Sequence record: SRR31156797_21721
DNA: 40,678 nucleotides
Direction: 5' to 3' (one strand)
The translations under genes were made by a program, and so were the position numbers. This document shows, piece by piece, positions 3,774 through 19,074 of the stretch. Below the pieces are notes generated by a model. It did not search any database and was not told the DNA's origin. It worked only from the letters and a program-made list of their open reading frames with translations. Numbering within the stretch: the stretch's first letter is position 1; every line of letters starts with the position of its first letter.

Positions 3774-3884
3774 ATAACACTTTTTTTTGCACAAACTTTT
3801 AAAATGCCTTATTTAAAAAGAAAATGAAAATCAATTTATTCATACAGGTTTGCAAATCTTGATTTATCGATTGATGATCAACCA

Positions 3885-4002
3885 TGGTAAATTTAATCTT
3901 GTTAAAAACGATAAAATTTCGTCAAAAAAGCATTATTTTATAGCTCTAATTTAGGTTTTTAGAGAGTTTGTATCGAATAGGTTGTTCCGATAAGAGCTAT
4001 AA
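3885..4002 (+). promoter_or_regulatory. Putative promoter and structured 5' leader of the surface-protein/polysaccharide operon
   Basis: Extended -10 TGGTAAATT at 3885-3893 with no good -35; 10-bp inverted repeat TTATAGCTCT (3938-3947) / AGAGCTATAA (3993-4002). Confidence 0.4.
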
Positions 4003-4098
4003 CTGATTTTTTTCGAGGGAGTAAGAAAGGGTGACTGATAAAAACGTGAAATGAATCTTTAAAGTACAAGAGAAAGAATAGAGAAAAAGGAGTTACTT

Positions 4099-7000
4099 AT
4101 GAATAACAAATTTAGTAAAAAAGTCACAGGTTTATTGTTGATTAGTCATTTAACTTTATCGGCGTTGCCAATAAATGCGATGGCGACAGAAAAAACTGAT
4201 AATTCTTCAGGAGTGACACAAGAGAGAATAGAAGCTCCAAATTTATTATTAGATAGTGAAGCAACTCAAAGCACAGAAAATGACCATACAGCAACCAATG
4301 AGCAAGCAGTTCAGGAAACAGAGGGTTCTCCTACTGAAAGTGAAGAAGCTCAAACAGAAGTTTCTACTGAGAACTCTTCAGAAAATAATGAAGTCGCAGA
4401 AAATGATGAACAAGCGGATGCACCAAATGAAGAAACCTCAGAAAGTAATTCTAACGAATCATCAGAAGACGCTGCTGAAACCCGTTCAACAAGGGCAAGT
4501 GTCCAAGTAACATCTGATGCTGAATTACGGACAGCGTTAGCCAATGCGACGGTTACACAAATCAGCTTAGCCAATAACATCACGATGACCAGTAGTGTGA
4601 CATGGACAGGGACGACCAAAACGATTGAAGGTAATGGTCATACGTTAACCTTCGGGAATAATGTTCGGTTGTATGGAAATACGGTAAATCAAGGATTAAG
4701 TATCAGAAATGTGAGAATCGTGGCTCATGCAACAAATACGATCTATCAAAATAGAACGTCCAGTGTTTCCTTCACAAACGTTACTCATGAAAATAGTCAT
4801 GCAACGGGGCGCTTACTCTATTTAGCCGCTAGCAATTCTTCAGCTAATTTCTTTGGCGAAAACCGATTAAATGCAGGTTCCTTGATTTGGGCTACTTCGA
4901 ATGTCCGAATGAATATCGGCAGTGGTGCTTCTGTAGTTGCAAATAACAATGGAACAGCTCGTGCGATTTATCTTGCAAGTGGTGGTCGAATTGATTTAGG
5001 TGAAGGCAGTTTATTAGACGTTACTCAAAACAATCCTTCAAATACAGCAAAAGCAGTCTTGATCGAAGGAAGTGCCTCAAGCGTAGTAGTTAATTCGAAT
5101 GCAACGTTTAAGATCACAAGTGCGCCAAATACGCAAAAAACACAAGAAGCATTGGGGTTGCGAGGTGCTTTGACCGTATTATCTGGGGGAACACTGGATG
5201 TCGTGGGAAGAAGCACGTATTCTACGGTAAACGTTGGACAATCAAGCACTTTCCACGAAGGATCAAATGTTCGAATCCAAAACAATCATACGAATGGAAC
5301 CGCAATTGGGTCCTATCCAGGAACAACGAACTACACGATCCACTCATCGACAGGAATGCAAACTTGGAGAAGATCAGCTGATTTTTCAGGAGAGCCCAGC
5401 TTTAATTATCCAGAGTTTAGACAAGGTTCTTTCTCACTAAATACTTATACGAACAAACAAGTTACTTCGCGAATTGAATCCAATGACTCAATCTTCAACG
5501 CAACATTCAATAGTTCTCAAATCGGAAAAATCGCTTTTGGTGACTTTGTGGATACCGCAACGATTCAACAAACGACCATTGACGACTTAACCACAAGCTC
5601 AACGCACATTACGGGGCGAGCTGAGCCAAATGCCGATTTAGCAGTCACTATTGAAGGACAAGGAAGTTTAACGGGACGCGTTGCAAGTGATGGAACTTAT
5701 CAATTTGCGATTCCGAACGCACCATTAGCAGTTGGAACAAAAGTGACTGTTACCGCAACGTCCAATGGTATTCAATCGGTTGCAGAAACAGTTGTAGAGG
5801 ATAGTGAAAAAGAAACGATTGCCGAAACAACGATTTCCGAGCTAAATACTGACTCCACAAGTGTGACGGGAACGGCTGAGCCGAATGCTGAGATTACGAT
5901 CAAAGCCGGTGACACGATCATTGCGAATGGACGAGTGGGTAGTGATGGCATCTATGCATTGACGATTGAGAAACAACAAGCTGGTACGGTAGTTACCGCC
6001 CAAGCAACCTTAAATGGCATTTCATCAAATATTGCAGAAACCATGGTTGATCGAGCAACGATCGCCGAAACAACATTGAATGAGGTGACAACCACATCCA
6101 CTACCGTTAGCGGAACAGCCGAACCAGATGCACATGTGGAAATTACTATAGGCGATTCTGAAACGAAAAATGCGACTGTCGATAGTGATGGTAATTTTGA
6201 AGTAGAGATTGATCCGCAAGCAGCGGGAACCATTATTACCGCTCAAGCAAGCATCGATGGATTGCAATCAAATATTGCTTCAACGATCGTTGTCACTGAT
6301 CCAGCAAACACCGAAGGCACGATTACACCAGCAAGCTACAATGTTTCTTCGGCCGATCAGTTCCTGAGAGGGGCGTATACGGGTGATGTTGTATCTGCCC
6401 GTGTGTATGTAAATGGATCATCCGTTCGTGGTGGGAATTTTGCTGATGGTTCGTTTGAATTCTTTATCGGCAATCGCATCCAATCCGTAGATGATGTCGT
6501 AGAAATCGAAGCCTTGGATCAATATGGCAAAGTACTTGATCGGACAACCGTTGAATTAACTAGAGATTTGGCTGGTTCGATCACACCGGATCAATATCGT
6601 GTTGGCGAAACAATGATTACAGGGACCTTTACGGGTGATGTCAATTTTGCACGTTTAGTGATCAATGGCACGCCTTCTAATGCATGGGGTGGTACCTTCA
6701 ATGCCGATGGCACCTTCTCGTTTTATGTAGCGAATCTTGGAATCAAAGCGGGCGATAAAGTTGAGATCCAAGCGTTGAACCGCCAAATTAACGGTAACAC
6801 GGAAGCAATCGAAGTGCTAGAAACCAAAGAAGTAACAGTGATTGATCAACTTCAAGGGACGATCACACCGGATCAATACAGTTACACCGATACCATGATT
6901 ACGGGAACCTTTACGGGAGATATCAATTTTGCCAACTTAGTGATTGATGGACAGTCAGTAGGGAACTGGGGTGGCACATTCAATAAAGAAACTGGCCGCT

Positions 7001-7707
7001 TTGAATTCTTTGTTCACGCACAATTTAGAGAACAGATCAGAACGGCAACGAAAGTAGAATTGCAAACCTACCATCGTGAAACAGTCGATGGACAAACGAT
7101 TGATCATAAGCTGGTGTTGCAGCCGATAGAAATCGTCAAAGCAGCAGGCACGATTCAACCAGCAGCCTTCAAAGTGACAGAGAGTGAAATTACTGGAACC
7201 TTTACAGGCGATGTGAATTTCGCCAACTTGATCGTTGATGGACGTTCAATTTCATGGGGAGGCACCTTTAACACCGCAAACCAGACGTTTACTTACTTTG
7301 TCAATCAAACGACCCGCGACTTGATTCGCGATGCGGAAACAGTTGAATTGGTTGCTTACCATCGGGAGGTTGTTAGTGGCCGTCCGGTAGACACCGAATT
7401 GGATCGCAGTGTAGTCACTATCGATAAAGAATTTACTGGAACGATTACGCCAAATCCATACAAGCTGGGAGACAGAACCATTACGGGGACCTATACAGGC
7501 GATGACATCAACTTTGCTCGACTTGAAATTGATGGCATGATCCTGTGGGTGAGCGGTTTTGCGGATGGTACCTTTACCGCCTACTTGAACCAAGAACAAG
7601 CCAACAGTGTGACAAAAGACAGCCAGATGACGATCTATGCATTGCATCGCTTTGCTGACTTAAGTACACGAGAGATTGCACAAGCAACCGTTTCAATCAC
7701 AGAATAA
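4099..7707 (+). CDS. Large secreted surface protein: signal peptide, acidic linker, pectate-lyase-like beta-helix/adhesive region, 3 Ig-like repeats of one type and 5 C-terminal Ig-like repeats of a second type
   Basis: Signal peptide ending AMA; ELRTALAN..ISLANNIT..IEGNGHTL; three TT(I/L)..(L/V)T.S..(I/V)(T/S)G.AEP.A repeats from 5572; five G(T/S)I(T/Q)P..(Y/F)...G.(Y/F)TGD repeats from 6316; AGGAG RBS. Confidence 0.9.
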   Translation: MNNKFSKKVTGLLLISHLTLSALPINAMATEKTDNSSGVTQERIEAPNLLLDSEATQSTENDHTATNEQAVQETEGSPTESEEAQTEVSTENSSENNEVAENDEQADAPNEETSESNSNESSEDAAETRSTRASVQVTSDAELRTALANATVTQISLANNITMTSSVTWTGTTKTIEGNGHTLTFGNNVRLYGNTVNQGLSIRNVRIVAHATNTIYQNRTSSVSFTNVTHENSHATGRLLYLAASNSSANFFGENRLNAGSLIWATSNVRMNIGSGASVVANNNGTARAIYLASGGRIDLGEGSLLDVTQNNPSNTAKAVLIEGSASSVVVNSNATFKITSAPNTQKTQEALGLRGALTVLSGGTLDVVGRSTYSTVNVGQSSTFHEGSNVRIQNNHTNGTAIGSYPGTTNYTIHSSTGMQTWRRSADFSGEPSFNYPEFRQGSFSLNTYTNKQVTSRIESNDSIFNATFNSSQIGKIAFGDFVDTATIQQTTIDDLTTSSTHITGRAEPNADLAVTIEGQGSLTGRVASDGTYQFAIPNAPLAVGTKVTVTATSNGIQSVAETVVEDSEKETIAETTISELNTDSTSVTGTAEPNAEITIKAGDTIIANGRVGSDGIYALTIEKQQAGTVVTAQATLNGISSNIAETMVDRATIAETTLNEVTTTSTTVSGTAEPDAHVEITIGDSETKNATVDSDGNFEVEIDPQAAGTIITAQASIDGLQSNIASTIVVTDPANTEGTITPASYNVSSADQFLRGAYTGDVVSARVYVNGSSVRGGNFADGSFEFFIGNRIQSVDDVVEIEALDQYGKVLDRTTVELTRDLAGSITPDQYRVGETMITGTFTGDVNFARLVINGTPSNAWGGTFNADGTFSFYVANLGIKAGDKVEIQALNRQINGNTEAIEVLETKEVTVIDQLQGTITPDQYSYTDTMITGTFTGDINFANLVIDGQSVGNWGGTFNKETGRFEFFVHAQFREQIRTATKVELQTYHRETVDGQTIDHKLVLQPIEIVKAAGTIQPAAFKVTESEITGTFTGDVNFANLIVDGRSISWGGTFNTANQTFTYFVNQTTRDLIRDAETVELVAYHREVVSGRPVDTELDRSVVTIDKEFTGTITPNPYKLGDRTITGTYTGDDINFARLEIDGMILWVSGFADGTFTAYLNQEQANSVTKDSQMTIYALHRFADLSTREIAQATVSITE

Positions 7708-7722
7708 GAAACAGAAACTACG

Positions 7723-7758
7723 AGAGCCCCTTGTACCTTGCCTGTTGCAAGGGGCTCT
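7723..7758 (+). terminator. GC-rich intra-operon stem-loop without a strong U tract
   Basis: AGAGCCCCTTG (7723-7733) pairs with CAAGGGGCTCT (7748-7758), followed only by TCATT. Confidence 0.65.
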
Positions 7759-7783
7759 TCATTGATAGAAAGAGAGAAAGCAA

Positions 7784-8278
7784 ATGAACATGAAGAAAAA
7801 AATCGTTAGCCTCTTTAGCCTTGCCCTCATGGGGAGTTTTTTAGCGGCTTGCTCGACGGATGACCAAGCAAAGACGGATACTACCCAAGGCAGCGAACCA
7901 ATCGAACAAATCACGGATCAAAGCAATGCCGAGCCGCAATCGATCATTGGTGGATTAAAGATCATCATCGACAAACAAGAAATCAATCAAAAGAAAACAG
8001 AAGATGGGGAACAAGTTTTACATACATTTACCATCACAGCAGAAAACATGGGGTCAGTTGCCGCAGGATTAGGTTCGATTGATTTTCTTTTAGAAACTGA
8101 AGAGGGAGAATTTCTTGAACTTGATCATACCATGGCGATGTTTGGCAATGAGATCGCTGTAGGTGAAACCATCACTGGACAAGTTTCCTTTGCTTTAGAA
8201 GAAGGACAAGTGGTGAAAAAACTGATTTATAAACCCGGTGAAGAACAATTAGCAGAATGGGATGTTAAGAGCGAATGA
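7784..8278 (+). CDS. Lipoprotein, DUF4352-like Ig-fold
   Basis: Basic N-terminus, hydrophobic stretch and lipobox LAAC; ITAEN.G...DFLL...EIAVGETITGQVSF pattern; 4-bp overlap with the next gene. Confidence 0.8.
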   Translation: MNMKKKIVSLFSLALMGSFLAACSTDDQAKTDTTQGSEPIEQITDQSNAEPQSIIGGLKIIIDKQEINQKKTEDGEQVLHTFTITAENMGSVAAGLGSIDFLLETEEGEFLELDHTMAMFGNEIAVGETITGQVSFALEEGQVVKKLIYKPGEEQLAEWDVKSE

Positions 8279-9528
8279 AGGTAAACGTTATTGGATTGGG
8301 GTATATCGGGCTGCCCACAGCACTTACTTTTGCAAACCATGGGATTGAAGTCGTTGGGGTTGATGTGTCAGAAACAGTCGTTCAATCACTTCAAGCAGGT
8401 CAGGCACCAATCGAAGAACCCCACATTGATCGCTATCTAGCACAAGCTTTAGCGAAAAAGACATTCAATGCACAGTTGGTACCAGAAAAAGCGGATGTCT
8501 TTATTATTGCCGTACCAACGCCAAATATTGCCGATCAATTTGGTAGTTGCGACTTGTCCTACGTGAAAGCGGCGATGGCTGCTATCTTACCCTATCTTGA
8601 AAAAGGCAACACAGTCATTGTTGAATCGACCATTCAACCCCGCACGATGGAAGACATCGTTGGACCATTTTTTGAAAAAGCAGGTTATACCATTGGAGAA
8701 GATCTCTATTTGTTGCATTGCCCAGAGCGAGTTTTGCCAGGGAAAATCTTTGAAGAGCTGGTGATGAACAATCGAATCATTGGTGGCATGACGAGCGCTT
8801 GCACCCAACAAGGCAAACGCATTTATCAGACCTTCGTCAAAGGAAACGTGCTGGAGACTTCTGCAAGTATCGCTGAGCTATCGAAATTGATGGAAAACAC
8901 CTATCGCGACTTGAACATTGCACTAGCCAATGAATTGGTCCAAATTGGGGATCGCCTAAACATTGATGCACTCCAAGTGATTGAGTTAGCCAATCAGCAT
9001 CCACGGGTCAATATCCATCAACCGGGACCTGGTGTCGGCGGTCATTGCTTAGCAGTCGATCCGTATTTTGTTGTCGCGGCAGCACCTGATGACGCGAAGT
9101 TAATTCAATTGGGGCGGATGATCAATACAGAGATGCCTGAATTCATTATAAAAAAAGTCGAAGAAATCTTAGCGATTCATGGTGGAAACAAAATCGCGGT
9201 CCTAGGGTTGGCGTATAAGGGCAACATTGACGATGCCAGAGAAAGTCCGGCTGTTGAGATCGCCAAAAGATTGAAACAAAAGAAAGCTCTGCAAGTCACT
9301 ACCTATGATCCTTATGTCGCCACTTCTGATGTTGCACAAATTGAAGCAGCACTAACAGACAGTGATCTGGCATTGATCCTCTGTGACCATGATGCCTTTA
9401 AAGACATAGCGCCGGCAGCCATTCAAGCGATGAAACAAAAAATCGTTTTTGACACGAAAAATATTGTGACAGGTAAAACGAGGTTCGAGGCTGCCTATTC
9501 TCTTGGGTCATTACCAAGCGCCCAGTAA
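8275..9528 (+). CDS. wecC: Nucleotide-sugar dehydrogenase, probably UDP-ManNAc dehydrogenase
   Basis: GLGYIGLP Rossmann motif, VESTI, HCPERVLPG, KLMENTYRD.NIALANE, PGPGVGGHCLAVDP, AYKGNIDD.RESP; WecB epimerase in the same operon. Confidence 0.88.
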   Translation: MKVNVIGLGYIGLPTALTFANHGIEVVGVDVSETVVQSLQAGQAPIEEPHIDRYLAQALAKKTFNAQLVPEKADVFIIAVPTPNIADQFGSCDLSYVKAAMAAILPYLEKGNTVIVESTIQPRTMEDIVGPFFEKAGYTIGEDLYLLHCPERVLPGKIFEELVMNNRIIGGMTSACTQQGKRIYQTFVKGNVLETSASIAELSKLMENTYRDLNIALANELVQIGDRLNIDALQVIELANQHPRVNIHQPGPGVGGHCLAVDPYFVVAAAPDDAKLIQLGRMINTEMPEFIIKKVEEILAIHGGNKIAVLGLAYKGNIDDARESPAVEIAKRLKQKKALQVTTYDPYVATSDVAQIEAALTDSDLALILCDHDAFKDIAPAAIQAMKQKIVFDTKNIVTGKTRFEAAYSLGSLPSAQ

Positions 9529-9568
9529 ATGGTTTGATTGCTATTTCTGTTATTGAAAGGGAAAACCA

Positions 9569-10303
9569 ATGAATAAAGAAATAAATATGAAAAAATTGAA
9601 GCAAGTCCTTCAGCAACGAATAGGCTGGATCCTCATGATCATTAGTATTCCCTTACTAGCGATGTTGCTTTATCTAACCCTGTTTGCTGAACCCATTTAT
9701 CAAAAAAGTGCGCAGTTGCTGATTAGTCAGTCAGAAACGATAGCTGGCAATCGTCTGGAAAACCAGACGATTCAGGCAGACCTTCAGCTCGTCAGTACCT
9801 ATAGCACCATCATCATGAGTCCTCGCATCTTAAATGAAGTCAGTGAGGCGCTAGAGGGAAGCTACGATGTGGCTGAATTGTCGGAGATTTTGAGTGTTAC
9901 CAATGCCACCAACTCGCAGATCATCGAAATCAACGCTTACCATCAAAGTCCGAAGATCGCAGCCGAAATCGCCAATACGACCGCCAGCGTTTTTAGTGAA
10001 GAGATCCCTAAGATCATGAACATTGATAATGTCACGATCTTAGCAGAAGGAACCGTTTTGCCACAAGAAACGCCTGCTCGTCCAAACAAGTTTTTGTTGT
10101 ACAGTTTGACCACTTTTTTAAGTCTTCTTTTCGCTTTTACGTATGTGTTCCTCCTGTTGGTTTTTGAGCGCAGCTTTGCTTCGAATACGGAAATCGAAGA
10201 GGTCTTAGGGGTAAAAGTCATCGGTGAGATAAGCAAAGAAAAACGAGTTGCTTCGTTTAAAACCATCCAGTCGAGAAGCTTTAGAGGAAGGAAGCGTGTG
10301 TGA
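9569..10303 (+). CDS. Polysaccharide co-polymerase / BY-kinase activator (Wzz/CpsC/CapA family)
   Basis: Two TM segments flanking an extracellular loop, TYSTIIMSPRIL, NSQIIEI, P.RP before the second TM, EIEEVLGVKVIG tail. Confidence 0.88.
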   Translation: MNKEINMKKLKQVLQQRIGWILMIISIPLLAMLLYLTLFAEPIYQKSAQLLISQSETIAGNRLENQTIQADLQLVSTYSTIIMSPRILNEVSEALEGSYDVAELSEILSVTNATNSQIIEINAYHQSPKIAAEIANTTASVFSEEIPKIMNIDNVTILAEGTVLPQETPARPNKFLLYSLTTFLSLLFAFTYVFLLLVFERSFASNTEIEEVLGVKVIGEISKEKRVASFKTIQSRSFRGRKRV

Positions 10304-10944
10304 TGCGTAGCATGAAGGAAAATTATTCCATCATCAGTGAACAAGTCAAGTTGATTCGCGAAAATGTCGACTATTTATGCCAACAACAAGATGCTCAAAC
10401 GATTTTGATTACTTCAGGAGAAAGCGGTACGGGAAAATCCACGGTCTCGGCAAATTTGGCGGTCGCCTATGCCCAAAAAGGGAACCGAACCTTATTGATC
10501 GATGCGGATCTGCGTAAACCCACCCAACATTATTTGTTTTCACAAGAAATGCACGTGGGCTTGTCCAACTATATCCGACGGGACATCTCGATCGAAAGCT
10601 GTGTCCAACAAGTGATTTTAGAAGATTGCGAATTTTCAATCATTACTAGCGGAGCCATTATGTCAAACCCTAATGATCTGCTCGCTTCTTCGAAAATGAC
10701 CGCAGCCTTGCAAGAGGTCAAACAACTATACGATGTGGTCATTATTGATACGCCACCAGTCAATGTCGTTTCGGATGCCTTGATCCTAGCCAAGAAAGTC
10801 GACGGTGTACTTTTAGTCGTTCATGCGGATAAAACGAACAAACAATCCGCAAAAAATGCCGTCAAAAAGCTACGCCTAGTTAACGCAAACATCTTAGGTG
10901 TCGTGGCGAATGGCACGGACACGGGCGAAAATTACTATTATTAA
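10300..10944 (+). CDS. Bacterial tyrosine kinase (CpsD/CapB family)
   Basis: Walker A GESGTGKST, A' LIDADLRKP, Walker B IIDTPP, C-terminal tyrosine cluster NYYY. Confidence 0.93.
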   Translation: MMRSMKENYSIISEQVKLIRENVDYLCQQQDAQTILITSGESGTGKSTVSANLAVAYAQKGNRTLLIDADLRKPTQHYLFSQEMHVGLSNYIRRDISIESCVQQVILEDCEFSIITSGAIMSNPNDLLASSKMTAALQEVKQLYDVVIIDTPPVNVVSDALILAKKVDGVLLVVHADKTNKQSAKNAVKKLRLVNANILGVVANGTDTGENYYY

Positions 10945-10957
10945 GGAGGGGAACTTT

Positions 10958-11605
10958 GTGGAAAGACCCGCTTTAGACAAGCAGTCAAGGGTTCAAGCGA
11001 CTAGTTATTTACGTTGGAAACGCACGATAGAAACTATCTTTAGCTTGGGCTTATTAGTCGTCCTTAGCCCGCTGTTACTGCTGATTTGTATAGGGATCAA
11101 ATTTTCTAACTGGCAGGCACCGATTATTTTTAAGCAAGTTCGTGTTGGCAAAAATGAGGCCACGTTTGTGATGTACAAATTTCGAACGATGGTGCCTGAT
11201 GCCGATCAATTATTAGGGCAGTACCTTGATAAAAACGAAATTGAAGGGGCCATGTTCAAGCTGAAGAAAGATCCGCGAGTGACGCGCTTAGGCCGTTTTT
11301 TAAGAAAAACGAGTCTTGATGAACTGCCCCAATTGATCAATGTCTTGAAAGGGGAGATGGCACTGGTCGGCCCCCGTCCTCCTTTAGAAAGAGAAGTCGT
11401 CAGTTATTCAGAAAAAGACAAGCAACGATTGTGTGTCACACCTGGGTGCACAGGGTTGTGGCAAGTCAGTGGACGAAACGAATTGAGCTTTCAAGAGATG
11501 GTCGCATTGGATCTCTATTACATCAATAACCTGAGCTGGTTATTGGACTTGAAAATAATTATGAAAACGATTGGCGTTGTTTTCTTACCCAAAGGAGCAT
11601 TCTAA
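10958..11605 (+). CDS. Priming phosphoglycosyltransferase (bacterial sugar transferase family)
   Basis: FKQVRVG, YKFRTM, DPRVTRLGRFLRKTSLDELPQL, VGPRP, PG.TGLWQVSGR. Start moved to the GTG at 10958, behind AAGGAGG. Confidence 0.92.
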   Translation: MERPALDKQSRVQATSYLRWKRTIETIFSLGLLVVLSPLLLLICIGIKFSNWQAPIIFKQVRVGKNEATFVMYKFRTMVPDADQLLGQYLDKNEIEGAMFKLKKDPRVTRLGRFLRKTSLDELPQLINVLKGEMALVGPRPPLEREVVSYSEKDKQRLCVTPGCTGLWQVSGRNELSFQEMVALDLYYINNLSWLLDLKIIMKTIGVVFLPKGAF

Positions 11606-12351
11606 TGGAGCAACAAGTACGTGTATCACTTTTAGGCAGCAATCTCGATTCCTTAAACTTTCAGGAAACCATTACTAAGATCGAGGCAATGATCGAACAG
11701 GGGATGCCCGCACAGCATGTTTCAATTAACGCGGGAAAAATAAACTTGATGCGAAAAGATCCCTCGTTGCGATCGATCGTCAATCGGGCAGCTTTGATCA
11801 CGGCTGATGGGCAGTCGATTGTCTGGGCAGCGAAATATTTAGGGTGCCCGGTACCAGAAAGGGTAACAGGCATCGATCTTTTTCGCGAGCTGGTCAAATT
11901 GGCAGCAGAAAAAGGCTGGCGTCCTTATTATTTAGGAGCAACTGCCGAAGTCGTAGAAGCCGTCGTCAAACATGACCAACAGCTCTATCCCGACCTGAAC
12001 ATAGCGGGTTTTCACCATGGCTATTTTTCCGAAGTCGAATCATTGGACGTGGCAAAAGAGATTGCACGGACGCAACCAGACTTGCTGTTTGTCGCTTTTT
12101 CTAGCCCGCAAAAAGAGATTTGGCTCGATACATTCAGCGAAGTGTTGCAAGTGCCATTTGCGATGGGCGTTGGCGGCAGCTTTGATATCGTCGCAGGCAA
12201 AACCAAACGAGCGCCTTTGTGGATGCAGCGGGCAGGTTTGGAATGGTTTTATCGCTTTGCGCAAGAGCCAGTCAGGATGTTTGATCGCTATATCATAGGA
12301 AATTTACGCTTTTTACAGTATGTGTGGGGAGAAAAAAGAAGAAACGCATGA
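11605..12351 (+). CDS. WecG/TagA/CpsF-family glycosyltransferase (ManNAc or ManNAcA transferase)
   Basis: ADGQSIVWA, PERVTGIDL, GVGGSFD, KRAP.WMQ..GLEW.YR..QEP motifs. Confidence 0.92.
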   Translation: MEQQVRVSLLGSNLDSLNFQETITKIEAMIEQGMPAQHVSINAGKINLMRKDPSLRSIVNRAALITADGQSIVWAAKYLGCPVPERVTGIDLFRELVKLAAEKGWRPYYLGATAEVVEAVVKHDQQLYPDLNIAGFHHGYFSEVESLDVAKEIARTQPDLLFVAFSSPQKEIWLDTFSEVLQVPFAMGVGGSFDIVAGKTKRAPLWMQRAGLEWFYRFAQEPVRMFDRYIIGNLRFLQYVWGEKRRNA

Positions 12352-13601
12352 AATCAAAACAGCAAAGCCATCACCGCTTCTTCCTGGGGATTGTGGCCAT
12401 TTTTCCGATAATCGACGTCTTAAACGGCTTATTTCTAAGTCTGGGCATTCCTTTTCCCATTGGCGTGTTTTACCGTTTGCTGTTCTTTTTGTTCTTAGTG
12501 ATTATGATCGTGACAGAAAAGATTCCCCATAGCTACTATACATATTTAACGTATGGGTTTATCGCTGTGACGCTTACGATTTTTCTGTTACAAGCACTTT
12601 TTCTAGGGTACAGCTGGCAGTGGGTGATCGAGGATCTATCGGTGTATATCAAATACCTCTTATGGGTACTGATTCCTTATTATGTCTATCAACGAAAAAA
12701 CGACTTCTCCAAACTGCACTACGACAGCTTATTTATTGTTATCAGTGTCTGCTTCACCTTGGGGCTACTGATTCCTTATTTTTTAGGGCTAGGCTACCAA
12801 ACTTATGACAATTCTGATGCTGGGTATAAAGGCTATTTCTTTGCCAATAATGATACGAGCTTTGCCTTTATTGTTTCAATCACCTTTACAGTCCAGGCAC
12901 TAATTGTTTCGATCAAAGAACAGACCCATAAGTTTTCACTGTTTTTGGCTAGTTTATTCGCTGGGAATTTCGTCTGTTTGGTCTTGGTCGGTACGAAAAC
13001 CGGCGTGTTTTATGGTGTCGGTGTGTTGTTCTATCTTTTAATCCGATTGGTGCTAGGCATTGAACGTAAAGCATTTCTGCAACAATTGTTTATCTGGTTT
13101 ATGAGTTTTATTACGATTGCTTGGCTGCTTATTCAAGGACTACCATTGCTGATCCAAGCCGTCGAAGGAACCTATCTTCGCATAGTGTATTTTTATCATC
13201 TTTTCGACGGGGACTTGATCCGGTTACTTTCTAGTTCAAGAAGTGATTTTTTGATTGGTGGGATGAACGCCTTCTTAAATGATGAGGCCCGACACTTTAC
13301 CATGATCTTTGGCCAAGGCTTTGAATACCGTTTGGCACACTTTGGTCGTCTTGGCTTAATTGAAATGGACTTCTTCGACACCCTTTTCGGGCAAGGCCTA
13401 CTGGGAATAGCGTTATTGCTGCTAATGCTCGCCTATTTTGTCTATTTGGCCTTTCAGCCACGAAAACGATCGGTTTATAGTTTTGCCTTGATCGTGGTGC
13501 TTTTTTATAGTTTTTTTGCCGGGCATGTTTTGTATTCGGCATTGTCTTCCACCTTTTTAGGATTGATTTGTGGAGGCATTATTTTAACAGAGAAAGAGTG
13601 A
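12348..13601 (+). CDS. Polytopic Wzy polymerase / O-antigen-ligase-like membrane protein
   Basis: About 11-12 hydrophobic segments, a large loop containing SSSR..IFGQG..EMDFFD, and its position in the glycan operon. ATG at 12348 overlaps the previous stop. Confidence 0.75.
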   Translation: MKSKQQSHHRFFLGIVAIFPIIDVLNGLFLSLGIPFPIGVFYRLLFFLFLVIMIVTEKIPHSYYTYLTYGFIAVTLTIFLLQALFLGYSWQWVIEDLSVYIKYLLWVLIPYYVYQRKNDFSKLHYDSLFIVISVCFTLGLLIPYFLGLGYQTYDNSDAGYKGYFFANNDTSFAFIVSITFTVQALIVSIKEQTHKFSLFLASLFAGNFVCLVLVGTKTGVFYGVGVLFYLLIRLVLGIERKAFLQQLFIWFMSFITIAWLLIQGLPLLIQAVEGTYLRIVYFYHLFDGDLIRLLSSSRSDFLIGGMNAFLNDEARHFTMIFGQGFEYRLAHFGRLGLIEMDFFDTLFGQGLLGIALLLLMLAYFVYLAFQPRKRSVYSFALIVVLFYSFFAGHVLYSALSSTFLGLICGGIILTEKE

Positions 13602-13609
13602 ACAACTGA

Positions 13610-15025
13610 TTGAAAAAATTACTTTTGAGGCTGGGCTTTTTCTCCCTCGGTTCGTTAGGTTCGGCGGTCTTAAACTTGGTGCTTTTGCCCGTAACGACCA
13701 GCTTTTTGACACCCGAAGAATATGGGAAGACCAGTATGTTTTTCCTTGCACAGACCTTTTTGATATACGTGATCTATCTCGGCTTCGACCAAGCCTTTAC
13801 GAGGGAATACCATGACCACGAAAACAAACGCGAGTTATTGCAACAAGCGATGCTCGTCCCGTTGCTCGGTTCATTTTTCTTTCAGCTGATCCTAGTGGTT
13901 TTTGCAGCAGATTTCTCGCAGCTTTTATTTGAGTCTCCACAGTACACCCGTGCGATTTATTTATTTGCTCTTTCGTCGGGACTGCTGATTTTTGAACGGT
14001 TTCTTTTGTTAACGGTTCGAATGCAAAACAAAGCGATCCAGTTCTCCGTTTACAGTATTTTGGTGAAATTCATGGTCTTGTTCATCACGTTGCTGTTTCT
14101 CTTTTTTGGTCCGCCGACGTTTATTACGGTGGTCTATGGCATGCTCTTCGGTCAGATTATCGGTGATTGTCTGTTGATTCTGGCAAACCTGGCGCTTTTT
14201 GTGCCGCTCATTCGCCAAATCGATCGCAACCTGATCAAAAAGCTGAGTCGTTTTGGCTTGCCGACGGTGGTGGGAACGTTCCTCTATAGCCTGTTAATGA
14301 TTATCGACAAAATGATGCTGCGCTATTTTGCTGATTTTGCCGCTTTGGGTATCTACACGGCTGCATTCAAAGTGGCAAGTGCCTTGATGATTCTACAAGT
14401 TAGTTTTGCCAATTTTTGGATTCCCACCTCCTATGAATGGTTCAAAAAAGGCAAACCATTGATTTATTACGAACGAGTCAGTCACTTTATCATGTTCGTC
14501 TTGTCGATTTTCTTTTTACTGATGGTCTTTTTCAAAGAAACGATCGTCATCTTATTGTCGCAAGACTACTTAGAGGCCCAGTACTTGTTTCCCTTGTTAT
14601 GTTTTTATCCCTTGATGATGACGATCAGTGAAACGACCAATCTCGGGATCGTTTTTTATAAGAAAAGTCATTTGAATATTGCTGCCTCTTTGCTGGCGGT
14701 CTTAGCCGCATCCCTTGGTCATCTCCTACTCGTACCGACAATTGGCGCCACAGGAGCGGCTTGTGCTACGGCATTAGGGTACTTGGTCTTCTTTTTTGCC
14801 CGTACATATTTTTCGATGACCTATTGGCAGGGGTTCTCAGTCAAACGCCAAATCAGCCTTTCGATCATGCTGTATTGCTTTGCGCTGTTTACGGCATTCA
14901 ATCGGACTCTTTGGCTGGAAAAGAGCCTCGTTTTGCTGCTGATGCTCTTCGTCGTTGTTCTTTATCGCAAGGAACTAAAGCAGGTAACTAGATTTGTACA
15001 AGAAAGGAAAATCAACAAAGCATGA
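13610..15025 (+). CDS. Wzx oligosaccharide flippase (MOP family)
   Basis: LLPV.T..LTPEEYG, LGFDQAFTR, IDKMML...LGIY.AAFK..S, LLVP.IGA.GAA.AT; TTG start. Confidence 0.9.
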   Translation: MKKLLLRLGFFSLGSLGSAVLNLVLLPVTTSFLTPEEYGKTSMFFLAQTFLIYVIYLGFDQAFTREYHDHENKRELLQQAMLVPLLGSFFFQLILVVFAADFSQLLFESPQYTRAIYLFALSSGLLIFERFLLLTVRMQNKAIQFSVYSILVKFMVLFITLLFLFFGPPTFITVVYGMLFGQIIGDCLLILANLALFVPLIRQIDRNLIKKLSRFGLPTVVGTFLYSLLMIIDKMMLRYFADFAALGIYTAAFKVASALMILQVSFANFWIPTSYEWFKKGKPLIYYERVSHFIMFVLSIFFLLMVFFKETIVILLSQDYLEAQYLFPLLCFYPLMMTISETTNLGIVFYKKSHLNIAASLLAVLAASLGHLLLVPTIGATGAACATALGYLVFFFARTYFSMTYWQGFSVKRQISLSIMLYCFALFTAFNRTLWLEKSLVLLLMLFVVVLYRKELKQVTRFVQERKINKA

Positions 15026-16053
15026 ATATCTTACTTATCGGTCCAGATCCAGCAGCAAAAGGGGGGATCGCAACGGTCATTTATAATTTCCAAAAAGCAA
15101 AAGCGCCAGAGGACGTGCGTTTCGTCGTCCATAAGACTTGGTCGGAAAAAGGAAAATATTGGACGCAGCTCAAAGCGTTTCTTACGTTTCGTCGGCACAT
15201 CAAAAAAGAAAGGTGCCAGATCCTTCATTTCCACGTTGCGCAAAAGGGCAGTTTCTATCGCAAGAGTTTGCTGTTGTTGCTAGCACCAAAACATTGCAAG
15301 ACGATTTTTCATATGCATGCTTCGCAATTTGACCAGTTTTATCAAAACAGTCCTTCGTGGGCAAAGTGGTGGGTCCGTTTTACCTTAGCTCGGGTGGATC
15401 AGCTCGTAGTGCTAAGTAGTAGCTGGTCAGCATTTTACCAAACGATTACCGATACCTCAATCGAGGTCTTGCCAAATGCCGTAGCGGTGCCGGAGGAATC
15501 CTTTTATGACCCCACCGCAAAATGGATCATCACTCTTGGCAGGATCGGGCAAAGAAAAGGCAGTTTTGATCTGTTGGCAGTTGCAAAAGCAATGGCTGTT
15601 TCCTTTCCCGAGATTCGCTTTATGTTATTTGGCGATCAAGAAAATCAACAGGTTGCCCAACAGCTCCAAGAAGAGGCTCTCACCAATGTGTTCTTAAATG
15701 AGTGGGTAGCAACCGATGCGTTACCAGCTGTTTTTCGTAAGGCAGCCATCCATTTTCTCCCTTCTTATCACGAAGGCTTGCCGATGGCGATCTTAGAAAC
15801 CATGGCGGCAGGTATCCCCAATGTAACGACGAAGGTTGGGGGAATCCCAGAGTTGATCCAATCGGGTGAAAACGGCTACCTAGTAGCTGCCGGTGATATT
15901 CAAGCAATGATCGAGACGTTGAGCGGTCTGTTAGCTAACGAGGAAGAACGAATCAAAAGCAGCCAACAAGCCAGAGCAACGATTGAGCAACAGTATGCCT
16001 TAACGTCGTATATGAAGCGCTGGCAGAAGATTTACAAAAAGCAACTTGATTAA
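15022..16053 (+). CDS. GT4-family glycosyltransferase
   Basis: KGGIA, GRIGQRKG, LPSYHEGLPMAILETMAAG (EX7E motif), VGGIPELI. Confidence 0.92.
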   Translation: MNILLIGPDPAAKGGIATVIYNFQKAKAPEDVRFVVHKTWSEKGKYWTQLKAFLTFRRHIKKERCQILHFHVAQKGSFYRKSLLLLLAPKHCKTIFHMHASQFDQFYQNSPSWAKWWVRFTLARVDQLVVLSSSWSAFYQTITDTSIEVLPNAVAVPEESFYDPTAKWIITLGRIGQRKGSFDLLAVAKAMAVSFPEIRFMLFGDQENQQVAQQLQEEALTNVFLNEWVATDALPAVFRKAAIHFLPSYHEGLPMAILETMAAGIPNVTTKVGGIPELIQSGENGYLVAAGDIQAMIETLSGLLANEEERIKSSQQARATIEQQYALTSYMKRWQKIYKKQLD

Positions 16054-16085
16054 TGCTCAAATTGCTGAAAAAAAGGAGAAGTACG

Positions 16086-17183
16086 ATGCAAAAAATAAAG
16101 GTATTATCTATTTTTGGTACACGACCAGAAGCCATCAAGATGGCACCGGTCATAAAAAAACTAGCAAATGATCCACGCTTTCTATCAAAGATCGTCGTGA
16201 CAGGGCAGCATCGAGAAATGCTTGAGCAAACATTAGCGGCGTTTGAGCTGACCCCTGATTACGACTTGGCTATCATGCGAGAAAATCAAACCTTGTCTAG
16301 TATCACCAGTCGTATTTTAGAAGGACTCGAAGGTATTTTTCAATCAGAAGAACCAGACGTAGTGTTGGTCCATGGCGATACGACGACGGCAGTGGCAGCT
16401 GCGCTGGCCGCTTTTTATCAGCAGATCTTGATTGGTCATGTGGAGGCTGGGCTACGAACAGGTAACAAGAATGATCCGTTTCCAGAAGAAATGAATCGCC
16501 GGTTGATTGATCAACTAGCAGATTTTCTCTTTGCCCCTACAGATCAAAGCCAGGCAAATCTGCTAAAAGAAAATCATCCACAAGACCGCATCGTCGTTAC
16601 TGGCAATACGTCTATTGATGCTTTGTACCACACCTTGGCACAAAAAAAAGACCGAAAACCAATCAGTGAGAAAAAAATCCTTTTAGTTACGATGCACCGG
16701 CGAGAAAATATTGGGCAACCCATGGAACAAGTGTTTCGTGCACTAAAACGCATCGCTATTGCTTATCCCGCACTGACGATGGTCTTTCCGATGCATAAAA
16801 ACCCTCGTGTCCGTACACTAGCCAAGCGCTATTTAGAAGGGCAGCAAAATATTGAGCTGATCGAACCATTGGATGCCCCTGCATTCTATCAGTTACTGGC
16901 AGGCAGCTACCTTGTTTTGACCGATTCAGGAGGGATTCAAGAAGAAGCACCCTCCTTGGGGATTCCTGTCTTGATCGTACGTGAAACGACGGAACGCCCA
17001 GAAGGGGTGGCAGCAGGGACTTTGAAACTTATTGGTACCCATGAGGAGCATGTGTATTCAGAAATCGTTCATTTATTGTCTGATGAGGCAGCATACAAAC
17101 AGATGGCGCAAGCCAAAAATCCCTATGGAGATGGACAAGCCAGTGAGCGAATCGTGGCTGAATTAAAAAGTTATTTCGAGTAG
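16086..17183 (+). CDS. wecB: UDP-N-acetylglucosamine 2-epimerase (non-hydrolysing)
   Basis: FGTRPEAIKMAP, TGQHREML, HGDTTT, HVEAGLRT, PFPEEMNR, TDSGGIQEEAP, NPYGDG. ATG at 16086 follows AGGAG. Confidence 0.95.
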   Translation: MQKIKVLSIFGTRPEAIKMAPVIKKLANDPRFLSKIVVTGQHREMLEQTLAAFELTPDYDLAIMRENQTLSSITSRILEGLEGIFQSEEPDVVLVHGDTTTAVAAALAAFYQQILIGHVEAGLRTGNKNDPFPEEMNRRLIDQLADFLFAPTDQSQANLLKENHPQDRIVVTGNTSIDALYHTLAQKKDRKPISEKKILLVTMHRRENIGQPMEQVFRALKRIAIAYPALTMVFPMHKNPRVRTLAKRYLEGQQNIELIEPLDAPAFYQLLAGSYLVLTDSGGIQEEAPSLGIPVLIVRETTERPEGVAAGTLKLIGTHEEHVYSEIVHLLSDEAAYKQMAQAKNPYGDGQASERIVAELKSYFE

Positions 17184-17197
17184 AGGAAGGCGAATCT

Positions 17198-18658
17198 ATG
17201 AGACAATTCCAATCATCTTTTGTCATTAGTAAAACGACGCTAAGGTGGCTACATTTGCTAGAACATATGGAGCACGCTTCTCATACACCGATCCGTGGGT
17301 TGTCAAAAGTGATCAAAAGCTCTAGCCGAACCATCATTGAAGATTTACAAAACATTAAAGAGTATTTCGAAGATGCTATCGAAATGGAAACGTCAAATAG
17401 TGGCTATCAGCTACAAGTCATCGACACAGAAAGCTACTTAGAAAAAAAACGGAATTTGATCAGTAACGAGCCGTTGTTTCGCATCTTTGAGAGCATTTTC
17501 TTAGGGGAAATATTGACCATCAATGAGTGGTCAGACATTTTGTTTATTTCCCCTGCAACGTTGATGCGGTATTTTCGAAAGATCGACCCAATTTTAGCAC
17601 AGTACCAACTGACATTAAATAAAACCACCGTTGATCTTATTGGTGAGGAAGTCAATATTCGCCATTTTTTTCTGAACTTTTATTATGAATCCGATAGTAC
17701 GCCGCATACCGTATTTCCGCCGTTGATCATTCATGAGATCGGTTTAAACTTGAAAAAAGAAGAATTCGATAGCAATTTCTCTAATCTTGCCTTTGAGGAA
17801 ATCAGTTACATGCTTTATATCATTTTAGAGCGAACCTCTCATGGCCATTACGTCACGATCGATCCAGCCATCGTCAAGCAGTTTCGTAAAGAGTATTATC
17901 TTGAGCTGAAAAAATTAAAGACGATGCTATCGAACCATTTGCAAACGACGATCGCCGAAAAAGAAATCATCTACTTTTATGCGTTATCGATGGGAAAACG
18001 GACGGTGTTTGATATTGATATGGAAAGGGACTTTTGCAACAAGTTAGGCAAAGACTCGCAGATCCTGCAACTAACCCAACGTTATCTAAAGGAGGCAGGC
18101 GTACCGCCGTATGCGCTGGAATATAGTACGGTTTTGATCCAGTCGTTTTTTGCGACGATCTTACTAAAAAATAAACTTTCACCGGTCTTGAACAAAGTGA
18201 TTCCCGATTTGATCTCATTTGTAAAAAAACATTTTCCAGAGGAAATGGCACAAAACACAGCGTTCTTACAAAAACAATTCAAACAACTGAAGTGTCTGTC
18301 TTTAGACATGATCGTAGATATCAGCGCAGTGTTTACCATTCACATGGACTGTGTGAAAGAATTGTACTGGGGGAAGCCTAAAAAAATTGCGTTCCTGTTA
18401 GAAGGGAATCAATTTATCTCGCAACGAATTCAGGTCACTGCTCGTAAGTATCTAGGCAGTTATCAGAAACTCTTTTTTCCGAATGTATTAGATATCAATC
18501 CCGGCTATTTTGAGGCGAACCAATTTGATATCGTCGTCACAAATTATAATGAGCATATGTCGAATTTTTCTTGTTCTGGCGTGTATTTATTGTTCAATAA
18601 AATCCCGAACTCAACCGATTGGCGCAGACTCATGTCATTGATCGACTTTAAACTTTAA
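17198..18658 (+). CDS. Mga-like HTH regulator (paralogue 2), 14 bp downstream of wecB
   Basis: KTTLRWL, SSRTIIEDL, FISPATLMR, GEEVNIR..FYYESDSTPH, DIVVTNY. Confidence 0.88.
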   Translation: MRQFQSSFVISKTTLRWLHLLEHMEHASHTPIRGLSKVIKSSSRTIIEDLQNIKEYFEDAIEMETSNSGYQLQVIDTESYLEKKRNLISNEPLFRIFESIFLGEILTINEWSDILFISPATLMRYFRKIDPILAQYQLTLNKTTVDLIGEEVNIRHFFLNFYYESDSTPHTVFPPLIIHEIGLNLKKEEFDSNFSNLAFEEISYMLYIILERTSHGHYVTIDPAIVKQFRKEYYLELKKLKTMLSNHLQTTIAEKEIIYFYALSMGKRTVFDIDMERDFCNKLGKDSQILQLTQRYLKEAGVPPYALEYSTVLIQSFFATILLKNKLSPVLNKVIPDLISFVKKHFPEEMAQNTAFLQKQFKQLKCLSLDMIVDISAVFTIHMDCVKELYWGKPKKIAFLLEGNQFISQRIQVTARKYLGSYQKLFFPNVLDINPGYFEANQFDIVVTNYNEHMSNFSCSGVYLLFNKIPNSTDWRRLMSLIDFKL

Positions 18659-18711
18659 CAATGGTCCAGGTGCAAAATAATTCTCAGATGAAAGATAGGA
18701 ATGATGCAATC

Positions 18712-19074
18712 ATGATGAAAAAAGGACATATGACACCAGAAGCCTATTTAAAAAATTACAGCGAACTTTGTTACTTGCAGGAATTTCCCCTAATCAAACA
18801 AGTATGTACAGAGTTGCAAACACGATTCAAAGAAATTTGCTATACCGAGTACGATAATGTGCTACAACAAATGGCGGATTTGCTAGAAATCGATGCCCAA
18901 CTGCAAATGTTTTTAGATTTTTTCCGACACGACTTTTTTAAAGAAATCGAATTAGCAGAAGAAGAGATCGTCGAAATGATCAAAAAGGACAAAAATGTCT
19001 ATTACCGACAAATGGCAGGGATCGGCACAAACCAGAAAGCGCCCCATGGCTTGATTTATCTCAGCGAGAAATGA
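18712..19074 (+). CDS. Hypothetical helical acidic protein; start uncertain, ORF open from 18661
   Basis: ORF directly after Mga paralogue 2 with plausible composition; AGGA lies upstream of the ATG at 18712. Confidence 0.65.
   Translation: MMKKGHMTPEAYLKNYSELCYLQEFPLIKQVCTELQTRFKEICYTEYDNVLQQMADLLEIDAQLQMFLDFFRHDFFKEIELAEEEIVEMIKKDKNVYYRQMAGIGTNQKAPHGLIYLSEK

Follow-up and report, generated by a model that had tools for sequence, protein, structure and literature searches.

A Big_15-repeat protein, a DUF4352-type lipoprotein and a predicted ManNAcA-type polysaccharide pathway in one enterococcal gene cassette: a possible protein-plus-glycan surface coat

Sequence record SRR31156797_21721 comprises 40,678 nucleotides of DNA (here termed the window, meaning the whole stretch that was analysed, with positions counted from its first letter). 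Judged by its closest public records, which are two contigs of Enterococcus entomosocium IIL-Cl05 followed by E. innesii, E. casseliflavus NBRC 100478 and E. mundtii, the window comes from E. entomosocium or a near relative. Here we describe a cluster of 13 co-oriented open reading frames (ORFs) at 4099-19074 on the plus strand, in which genes for a large secreted protein ending in Big_15 immunoglobulin (Ig)-like repeats and for a small lipoprotein are followed by genes for a polysaccharide predicted to contain N-acetylmannosaminuronic acid (ManNAcA). The three parts are found together in five bacterial families, and the cassette that they form may build a surface coat of protein plus glycan in a manner that has not been described.

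The features of the cluster, with product names assigned from Pfam and NCBIfam and the match values in brackets, are as follows:

3845-4098, plus strand: leader or promoter region (the contig from run X2 that covers the cluster starts at 3845)
4099-7707, plus strand: 1202-amino acid secreted protein with no recognisable anchor (Pfam; full-length orthologues)
6316-7704, plus strand: five-repeat Big_15 array forming the C-terminus of this protein (residues 740-1202, up to the last residue)
7723-7758, plus strand: conserved hairpin separating the big gene from the lipoprotein gene (in the 76-bp gap; found by eye; 13-bp stem)
7784-8278, plus strand: 164-amino acid lipoprotein (lipobox LAAC, an unconserved linker of ~30 residues and a predicted DUF4352-fold beta-sandwich)
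8275-9528, plus strand: WecC-like UDP-ManNAc dehydrogenase (TIGR03026, 422 bits, cut-off 189.8)
9569-10303, plus strand: CpsC/Wzz-type chain-length determinant (Pfam Wzz, 3.7e-15; TIGR01006, 147.7 bits, below cut-off)
10300-10944, plus strand: CpsD-type tyrosine autokinase (TIGR01007, 195.7 bits, cut-off 108)
10898-11605, plus strand: small polyprenyl-phosphate sugar-phosphate transferase, the initiating enzyme (Bac_transf, 8.8e-67)
11605-12351, plus strand: WecG/TagA/CpsF-family ManNAc(A) transferase (PF03808, 1.1e-60; TIGR00696, 148.5 bits, cut-off 69)
12324-13601, plus strand: Wzy-type polymerase, an O-antigen-ligase-like membrane protein (O-antigen_lig PF13425, 1.3e-21)
13610-15025, plus strand: Wzx flippase (Polysacc_synt, 1.3e-16)
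15022-16053, plus strand: GT4 glycosyltransferase (Glycos_transf_1, 8.8e-30)
16053-17183, plus strand: WecB UDP-GlcNAc 2-epimerase (Epimerase_2, 6.7e-122)
17198-18658, plus strand: Mga/PRD-family regulator (PF05043, 1.1e-12; same position in E. mundtii)
18661-19074, plus strand: DUF7006 small soluble protein paired with the Mga gene (PF22652, 2.2e-30; same pair in E. mundtii)

No intergenic gap exceeds 76 bp (7708-7783), stop and start codons overlap at several junctions, and the lipoprotein stop and the wecC start share 8275-8278. The true start of the phosphotransferase probably lies about 20 codons past the listed GTG, near 10958, since homologues align from residue 21. A preliminary description of the locus had reported the 13 co-oriented genes, the 76-bp maximum gap and the lipoprotein/wecC overlap; the ORF list confirms all of these, and the Pfam and NCBIfam assignments agree with the product names that it gave.

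The big protein begins with a signal-peptide-like N-terminus and an acidic low-complexity linker, after which Pfam recognises Pectate_lyase_5, three Big_6 and five Big_15 domains. The Pectate_lyase_5 match covers approximately residues 135-234, with beta-helix-like repeats continuing, by eye, to around residue 490; the Big_6 domains span ~490-735, and the Big_15 repeats start at residues 740, 826, 920, 1017 and 1114. When the head (residues 120-500) was looked up in a protein atlas, all clusters obtained were of the Pectate_lyase_5 type, and the head may be an enzymatic lyase or hydrolase. As the preliminary description had stated, the protein is without an anchor: no LPXTG or WxL motif, hydrophobic tail or Gram_pos_anchor match was found, and the C-terminal end (...ATVSITE) lies at the last Big_15 repeat. 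An LPXTG-type C-terminal anchor was likewise not seen in the cassette homologues of the protein. Full-length orthologues are found in E. entomosocium (99% identity), E. innesii (94%) and E. mundtii (70%).

An AlphaFold2 (AF2) model of the second Big_15 repeat has a confidence score (pLDDT) of 95.8. The top structural match of the model, in a VIA search, is the C-region of the Staphylococcus aureus Bap protein (Z 9.8, root mean square deviation 2.3, 84 residues), below which lie generic Ig and fibronectin type III (FnIII) folds with Z of 7.8 or less; Foldseek found no match to the model in the PDB at E ≤ 0.001. Elsewhere in the protein, residues 492-623 match the Bap structure 7dm0 by sequence (E 1.3e-11). 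As modelled, the Big_15 repeat looks like a stalk unit, a resemblance that speaks neither for nor against glycan binding.

The lipoprotein scores 23.7 against the Pfam DUF4352 model, below the gathering cut-off of 25.9. Its AF2 domain model (pLDDT ~90) is a beta-sandwich whose best PDB matches in Foldseek are YxkC, YcdA, YjhA and MPT63 (E 1e-4 to 3e-4), and on this model the protein would belong to the DUF4352 fold despite the sub-cut-off Pfam score. The lipobox cysteine (Cys23) is invariant in all 11 family members, and the linker that follows is rich in serine, threonine, aspartate and glutamine. Complex prediction for the Big_15 region (463 amino acids) with the mature lipoprotein (residues 50-164) gave no answer (scores 0.00/0.00) and is evidence neither way. 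The DUF4352 lipoprotein treated in PMC5736727 is a different one, lmo0617. The window also encodes Lit, the lipoprotein intramolecular transacylase that produces lyso-form lipoproteins (34661-35299, plus strand), and the cassette lipoprotein would probably be of the lyso-form in this host.

The genes between wecC and wecB provide a complete Wzx/Wzy core—initiating transferase, flippase and polymerase—together with the CpsC/CpsD pair. The dehydrogenase matches UDP-ManNAc dehydrogenase models at 388-391 bits, below their equivalog cut-offs of 459 and 750 (PRK11064: 388, cut-off 459), and the best UDP-glucose dehydrogenase model at 198 bits, about half of the UDP-ManNAc fit. With the epimerase it would form a ManNAcA precursor pair, and WecB, a dehydrogenase of this fit and the WecG/TagA transferase suggest, taken together, ManNAcA as a component of the repeat unit. 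The sugar moved by the WecG/TagA-family transferase is one that we infer, since the TarA-, WecG- and EpsA-specific models all fall below their cut-offs. One phosphotransferase and two glycosyltransferases suggest about three sugars per repeat unit. The cluster contains a single Wzy_C-type protein, for which sequence alone cannot tell polymerase from oligosaccharyltransferase, and no CsaB-type pyruvyl transferase was seen among the 13 genes. From this gene content, the product is most likely an acidic ManNAcA-containing heteropolysaccharide, and would be a polymer of the type 5/8 capsule (CP5/8), teichuronic acid or enterobacterial common antigen (ECA) kind.

Linkage of such a polymer to the wall would probably be made by LCP enzymes. 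The preliminary description had remarked that the locus lacks a head of the cpsA/cpsB type, and this is true of the window: neither an LCP protein (LytR_cpsA_psr) nor a PHP phosphatase was found among the 13 products or the other scanned window ORFs. In E. mundtii, however, the orthologous cluster ends with Mga, DUF7006 and then an LCP ligase gene, and the presence of this gene favours a wall-linked polymer. The genome nearest to the window has five LCP genes, all on other contigs than the cluster, and a third tyrosine-kinase gene (44% identical) that lies ~1.1 kb from one of these, again on another contig. This last site may be the canonical capsule region of Palmer et al. (2012; PMC3374389), a cpsA-D-like region with an LCP-Wzz-kinase-phosphatase head which, according to that paper, is present in the E. 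casseliflavus group. The canonical region and the window cassette have a Wzz/tyrosine-kinase module in common, and the cassette is a second locus with a different organisation.

Accessory genes within the pathway differ between the cassettes described below. An AsnB-like glutamine amidotransferase of ~600 amino acids is encoded between wzy and wzx at one locus (L058:15585-17411) and at three others (L060, L068 and L072), and other cassettes carry Acyl_transf_3 or hexapeptide acetyltransferases. By their predicted products, these differences amount to serotype-like variation of the polymer, and AsnB-like amidotransferases would fit amidation of a uronic acid.

Within Enterococcus, the cluster is found in several states. 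One E. entomosocium contig carries it with proteins that are 98-100% identical, the E. innesii cluster is 92-98% identical, and in two E. mundtii genomes gene content and gene order are fully conserved, at 67-80% amino acid identity. A second copy of the cassette lies on a 26-kb contig of the same E. entomosocium IIL-Cl05 assembly. Here the pathway is 78-98% identical, the lipoprotein 98% and the C-terminal repeats 90-93%, and the head is different: the big protein is a 957-amino acid ORF with four Big_15 repeats instead of five, with a WxL-like fragment upstream. With a read coverage of 64x against 48x, the contig may represent a plasmid or a duplicated region. Megablast of the window's cluster against a plasmid collection gave no match. 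All nine Big_15 repeats of this nearest genome sit in the two cassette proteins. In E. casseliflavus NBRC 100478 the locus is decayed: the big gene is open (a 1121-amino acid ORF whose head shows just 36% identity), but the reading frame of the lipoprotein does not continue intact past residue 145, and wecC stops short at codon 294. The remaining pathway, the Mga-DUF7006 pair, and the WxL gene and third Mga gene found to the right of the cluster in the window are missing and ABC transporter genes come next; since the sequence jumps from wecC directly to these, the pathway has been deleted. In the GTDB genus as a whole the lipoprotein is present in three of eight species genomes.

A second, looser version of the association was seen in an E. 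mundtii genome (G157, ~1.886-1.915 Mb; L113 and L091). Behind the gene for a 2141-amino acid protein ending in Big_15 repeats lie a WecC-like gene (39% identical), Wzz and kinase genes and further glycan genes, with an Mga-like gene and the lipoprotein on the opposite strand ~12 kb away and WecB and one LCP gene close by.

A direct protein search with the lipoprotein returned 11 clusters of relatives, from Enterococcus and Listeria. The profile built from these was run on 401 genomes sampled across the order, to which the counts below refer, with the best nine candidates per genome being scored. Matches were found in 34 genomes: 8 of the 63 in the window's own family, 23 of the 38 in a second family (f7), taken as Listeriaceae because Listeria proteins are among the protein-search matches, and one in each of three further families. 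Forty lipoprotein loci were fetched, a non-random sample made up of the 20 best matches and 20 weaker ones picked by hand. A Big_15-array protein is encoded immediately upstream of the lipoprotein on the same strand at 31 of these 40 loci, a wecC homologue (53-77% identical) immediately downstream at 27, and both at 25. Of the others, two are truncated at the end of a contig, at two the Big_15 genes are set apart by a few small ORFs, four have no nearby Big_15 protein and one has no lipoprotein ORF by hidden Markov model (HMM). The genes after wecC are usually those for Wzz, kinase, phosphotransferase, WecG, Wzy, Wzx and GT4; in a variant form, what comes after wecC is a pair of GT4 genes and a gene for a 734-amino acid glycosyltransferase.

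Searching the same genomes with WecC, scoring up to four genes in each, gave a two-humped distribution, with 77 genes at 53-99% identity in 30 genomes and eight at 39-42% in seven others; genes at or above 53% were taken as the wecC subfamily. A lipoprotein match lies on the same strand within 500 bp upstream of 57 of the 77. Ten of the 20 misses were fetched: a weaker lipoprotein homologue is encoded immediately upstream of wecC in seven and elsewhere in the cluster in one, and is missing from two, making 57 of 77 a lower bound. Pfam Big_15 is present in 42 genomes and the wecC subfamily in 30, and all three parts occur in 29. The single genome with the wecC subfamily alone has it in a different cluster (L093), and two genomes have weak lipoprotein matches and no Big_15. 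In each of three families (f2, f8 and f9) just one genome—of 26, 36 and 61, respectively—has any part of the system, and in each case it has the whole cassette with its parts adjacent (L066, L076 and L072), for which horizontal transfer as a unit is the simplest reading. A neighbourhood survey of this kind had been put forward in the preliminary description as a check: the triad recurs in Enterococcus, Listeriaceae and three further families, often several times per genome, with adjacency surviving to ~30-45% identity, and the glycan genes are not commonly found without the protein and lipoprotein, since 29 of the 30 wecC-subfamily genomes carry both. This recurrence and the synteny with E. 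mundtii place the arrangement far from chance. In genus g45 of f7, several genomes (G216, G258, G265 and G286 among them) have more than 100 first-look candidate Big_15 repeats each, and up to 165, with at least four wecC genes of the subfamily and up to eight lipoprotein paralogues; on these counts, the genus would represent a large expansion of the system.

What is constant among the big proteins is the position of the array. In nearly all cassette proteins, arrays of 2-14 Big_15 repeats run to the last residues, the exceptions being one protein at each of two loci (L086 and L075) and frameshifted fragments. The heads vary, consisting of Pectate_lyase_5, runs of Big_6, Bact_surface_Ig-like domains or several hundred residues that belong to no family. 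Across the protein family, then, the Big_15 array stays constant and the N-terminal head varies.

Array proteins also exist away from the cassette. Twelve further Big_15 loci were inspected in three cassette-bearing f7 genomes. Nine of these encode 11 proteins with C-terminal arrays, with neither the lipoprotein nor wecC found up to four ORFs away; a single gene broken at a contig end accounts for two of the 11. Nine of these proteins were run against Pfam, and all nine have solely Ig-type domains. The rest of the set includes two further cassettes and one locus, in E. mundtii, where the Big_15 gene heads a second glycan locus. In three enterococcal genomes that have no cassette, the repeats of five Big_15 proteins are N-terminal or internal (residues 47-269 of 841, 48-288 of 552, 49-332 of 510, 103-290 of 497 and 73-1123 of 1191). 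At two of the seven loci from cassette-less genomes no ORF matched a five-repeat Big_15 HMM, and one genome with matches on very small contigs was left out of this sample. At the loci sampled, therefore, C-terminal arrays were seen only in cassette-bearing genomes. As far as sequence comparison reaches, these data establish a three-part functional unit whose constant protein element is the C-terminal Big_15 array.

The cluster is also covered in RNA libraries. At least half of the sampled words of 3500-12500 are contained in 22 public runs, 18 of which are recorded as RNA; 17 of these 18 are ant metatranscriptomes of 2025, possibly from one campaign. Contigs of four runs (X1, X2, X3 and X10) were compared with the window and three of these (X2, X3 and X10) used for expression counts. 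In X2 one contig matches 3845-19660 exactly at a depth of 261, against 42 upstream and 14 in the first contig past its end. In X3 one contig spans 4223-17489 at a depth of 92, with 20 upstream and 18-22 downstream, and in X10 three pieces (4903-8074, 8026-12673 and 13031-17149) have depths of 19-23, with adjacent flanks at 1-5. Depth thus shifts at the cluster borders and stands well above the immediate flanks in all three runs, and in all three, each an ant metatranscriptome, contigs span 7707-8275, that is the joints between the big gene, the lipoprotein gene and wecC. The low-depth flanks amount to only a few hundred bases on each side, since the WxL gene past 20088 is well covered (222, 112 and 28.5 in X2, X3 and X10, on separate contigs). 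Coverage drops after wecB in two runs, which suggests that the Mga-DUF7006 pair is read at a lower level. Run X1 bears an RNA label and was left uncounted as evidence of expression: the compared contigs are of 13.4 and 13.6 kb, one of them continuing past the compared stretch, the longest contig in the run is of 142 kb and the coverage is DNA-like.

The 76-bp gap between the big gene and the lipoprotein gene contains a hairpin (7723-7758) with a minimum free energy of -25.5 kcal/mol (z -3.75; none of 200 shuffled sequences folds as well). In E. innesii, E. casseliflavus and E. mundtii both arms of the hairpin have changed in ways that preserve the stem, and the hairpin is a candidate leaky terminator or 3' stabiliser. 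A simple terminator scan of the window performed at chance (18 sites against 18.7 expected) and did not list this hairpin, and a consensus promoter scan was likewise at chance (33 sites against 35.0 expected).

To the left of the cluster lie a gene for a serine resolvase (792-1367, minus strand) and a second Mga gene, and to the right, in order, an Mga-like ORF that is truncated, the gene for a WxL protein, another Mga gene (the third) and chromosomal housekeeping genes. The window itself begins within the C-terminal part of an LPXTG protein with Big_3 domains (2-625, plus strand). Three full Mga/PRD genes and one fragment thus occur within 22 kb (1548-3038, 17198-18658, 19202-20146 on the minus strand and 21892-23049 on the minus strand). 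Elsewhere, Mga-like genes adjoin many Listeria-family cassettes, one cassette having a cNMP-binding (Crp/Fnr-like) gene instead, and resolvase-like genes also flank three cassettes (L062, L066 and L076). The contigs of all four runs either end their match at 20087 or begin it at 20088, continuing with unlike sequence. The ORF that crosses this point (19202-20146, 314 amino acids) is a C-terminal fragment of an Mga-family protein with no helix-turn-helix (HTH), and 20087/20088 looks like a recombination point or island edge just before the WxL gene. The WxL-domain surface protein itself (20089-21507, plus strand) contains Big_6, and the customary partners of a WxL locus are not in view.

The preliminary description had proposed a matched protein-glycan unit in which the polymer is the anchor, ligand or modification of the protein. 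That the genes form a unit is well supported by the co-occurrence of the parts in 29 of 30 genomes, by the adjacency seen at no fewer than 57 of 77 wecC genes and 31 of 40 lipoprotein loci, and by the RNA-library contigs over 7707-8275; the part assigned to the polymer is an interpretation. Our own model takes the 13 genes to be one conserved, horizontally mobile cassette that would make a matched protein-plus-glycan surface layer, coat or matrix. WecB, WecC, the phosphotransferase, the WecG/TagA-type transferase, GT4, Wzx, Wzy and CpsC/CpsD would together make an acidic ManNAcA heteropolysaccharide, which LCP enzymes—acting in trans in this genome and encoded by the cluster in E. mundtii—probably join to the wall. 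The big protein would be exported via Sec, with its adhesin-like beta-helix head borne on an Ig-like stalk, and its Big_15 array, in a protein with no covalent anchor signal, would hold it in place by associating with the polymer or the membrane-tethered lipoprotein, or with the two together. The DUF4352 lipoprotein would act as an obligatory extracytoplasmic accessory, the Mga-type regulator and DUF7006 may control the unit, and the hairpin downstream of the big gene probably adjusts the level of its message relative to that of the pathway.

Retention of the big protein in the polymer layer by its array, whether by way of the polymer, of the lipoprotein or of the two together, is the reading that we rate most likely, with the chances about evenly balanced for and against it. 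Several points weigh on the other side. E. casseliflavus NBRC 100478 keeps an open big gene though its pathway is deleted from within wecC; Big_15 occurs without this wecC subfamily in 13 of 42 genomes; and four loci (L061, L071, L089 and L091) have the lipoprotein and glycan genes with no adjoining Big_15 protein. Lectin and carbohydrate-binding module (CBM) folds do not stand out in the Big_15 structure searches and this, together with the likeness to the Bap stalk, means that the array may be a mere spacer. The sampled genomes are related, so that the co-occurrence counts, which are descriptive and carry no statistical test, overstate independence. The RNA evidence consists of assembled contigs with possible DNA carry-over, from which a single transcript is not provable. 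Gene content, conservation of the triad, the architecture of the C-terminus and coverage in RNA libraries are observed; the chemistry of the sugars, linkage to the wall and contact of any kind between protein, polymer and lipoprotein are what we infer.

The main rival explanation supposes co-regulation only. The pathway would be an ordinary capsule or exopolysaccharide (EPS) operon to which an adhesin gene has become linked through a shared Mga-type surface regulon, and the protein would be released, or held by peptidoglycan, lipoteichoic acid or another general wall component, with no need of the polymer. Mga-family regulators do flank the locus and sit inside it, and accompany many Listeria-family cassettes; the Big_15 fold is stalk-like rather than lectin-like, unlinked array proteins exist, and E. 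casseliflavus has retained the big gene without the pathway. What co-regulation leaves unexplained is that adjacency persists at low identity over five families, that a dedicated lipoprotein gene always lies between the protein gene and the glycan genes, and that, at the sampled loci, C-terminal arrays are confined to cassette-bearing genomes. On balance we regard this explanation as unlikely, though it is the strongest of the alternatives.

Less probable again is that the lipoprotein acts as a tether, anchoring the last Big_15 repeat to the membrane with the array spanning the wall as a stalk, and that the polymer forms a capsule of its own, produced in parallel. The Big_15 protein and the lipoprotein do form the tightest pair (31 of 40 loci), one that persists at six loci where the next gene is not wecC (L075, L076, L085, L086, L090 and L092). 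LPXTG proteins have the same layout, with the head at the N-terminus and the stalk at the C-terminus, and one deposited model (9a4z) places YxkC, a DUF4352 relative, in a protein-protein complex with DacA. Against this, unlinked array proteins have no adjoining lipoprotein gene, coupling of the lipoprotein to wecC is tight as well and often translational, and the lipoprotein is found with glycan genes and no adjoining Big_15 protein at four loci (L061, L089, L094 and L096).

We think it very improbable that the polymer is moved covalently onto the big protein or the lipoprotein linker by the O-antigen-ligase-like protein acting as an oligosaccharyltransferase, as in S-layer O-glycosylation. 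In its favour, the Wzy_C-type superfamily to which the only such protein (PF13425 match) belongs also includes O-oligosaccharyltransferases, the window's cluster has no LCP ligase and the linker is rich in serine, threonine, aspartate and glutamine. Against it, the polymerase role is already taken in a cluster with a single Wzy-type protein and a CpsC/CpsD pair implying polymerisation, variant cassettes such as L082 keep the Big_15 protein, lipoprotein and wecC with no Wzy match among the ORFs examined, and the E. mundtii cluster has its own LCP gene.

In the literature searched, to which supplements did not belong (data set S4 of PMC3374389 might list the locus), no description of the cassette or of Big_15 was found. 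We tentatively suggest, while holding it somewhat doubtful, that C-terminal Big_15 arrays are an undescribed surface-retention module of the Bacillota, whose partners would be a dedicated ManNAcA-type wall polymer and a DUF4352 lipoprotein. To our knowledge, only a few sortase-independent routes for surface proteins are recognised in Gram-positive bacteria: the S-layer homology (SLH) and CWB2 domains, choline-binding repeats, GW, LysM and WxL. If the suggestion is correct, this would be one more such route, equipped with a dedicated polymer and lipoprotein, a Pfam Ig domain and a subfamily of DUF4352 would each gain a function, and the three-part cassette would be a portable surface-display kit, possibly usable as a display scaffold. 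It would also explain how dozens of anchorless Ig-repeat proteins in relatives of Listeria, and adhesin-like proteins in insect-gut enterococci, are retained at the surface. Being mobile, with heads swapped between copies, and covered in ant metatranscriptomes, the cassette is a plausible host-colonisation determinant of insect-gut enterococci. Were its parts to prove merely co-regulated, it would still be a well-defined and widespread capsule-plus-adhesin module.

The individual parts of the cassette have parallels in several known systems. The cap5/cap8 loci of S. aureus encode Wzx and Wzy, a CapA/CapB-like pair, a Bac_transf protein, a GT4 enzyme and an epimerase and UDP-ManNAc dehydrogenase that supply ManNAcA. 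The cluster described here resembles them in having Wzx and Wzy, a chain-length/kinase pair, a small Bac_transf protein, GT4 and a ManNAcA-supplying pair, but has no genes for N-acetylfucosamine (FucNAc) synthesis and no CapC-type phosphatase, possesses a WecG/TagA transferase, and alone has a 1202-amino acid secreted protein and a lipoprotein at its head. Teichuronic acid pathways, known from the tua operon of Bacillus subtilis and the ManNAcA-glucose polymer of Micrococcus luteus, also yield an acidic uronic-acid polymer using phosphotransferase, GT4, dehydrogenase, flippase, polymerase-like and Wzz-like genes. Matches to the NCBIfam models for TuaC and TuaD are weak, however, far below the Tua cut-offs, and the cluster adds a tyrosine kinase, WecB, WecG, the big protein and the lipoprotein. 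The S-layer O-glycosylation (slg) clusters of Paenibacillus alvei and Geobacillus likewise combine assembly of a glycan linked to undecaprenyl phosphate (Und-P), with a WecG/TagA-type transferase, Wzx and Wzy, and a specific surface protein; here, by contrast, no separate oligosaccharyltransferase and no S-layer-type protein was found in the cluster, and some variant cassettes have no Wzy match among the ORFs examined.

The big protein by itself is reminiscent of the Bap family, whose members are also large secreted proteins with long runs of Ig-like repeats and which it matches both by sequence and by structure. It differs in having no LPXTG anchor, in carrying a beta-helix head rather than the N-terminal regions of Bap, and in being encoded at a fixed position beside a glycan pathway. 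For the arrangement as a whole, the closest parallels would be the systems of non-covalent anchoring: SLH domains binding pyruvylated secondary cell wall polymer (SCWP) in Bacillus anthracis, CWB2 domains and polysaccharide II (PSII) in Clostridioides difficile and the choline-binding repeats of pneumococcal proteins. Big_15 is unrelated to any of these modules, with a fold near to that of the Bap stalk, and the present system adds a constant lipoprotein. What it has in common with SLH/SCWP and CWB2/PSII is a terminal module of tandem repeats, borne by several secreted proteins that are free of a covalent anchor, and a dedicated polymer locus that is linked to them or co-occurs with them. By analogy, it is these two systems that the overall logic of the cassette would most resemble.

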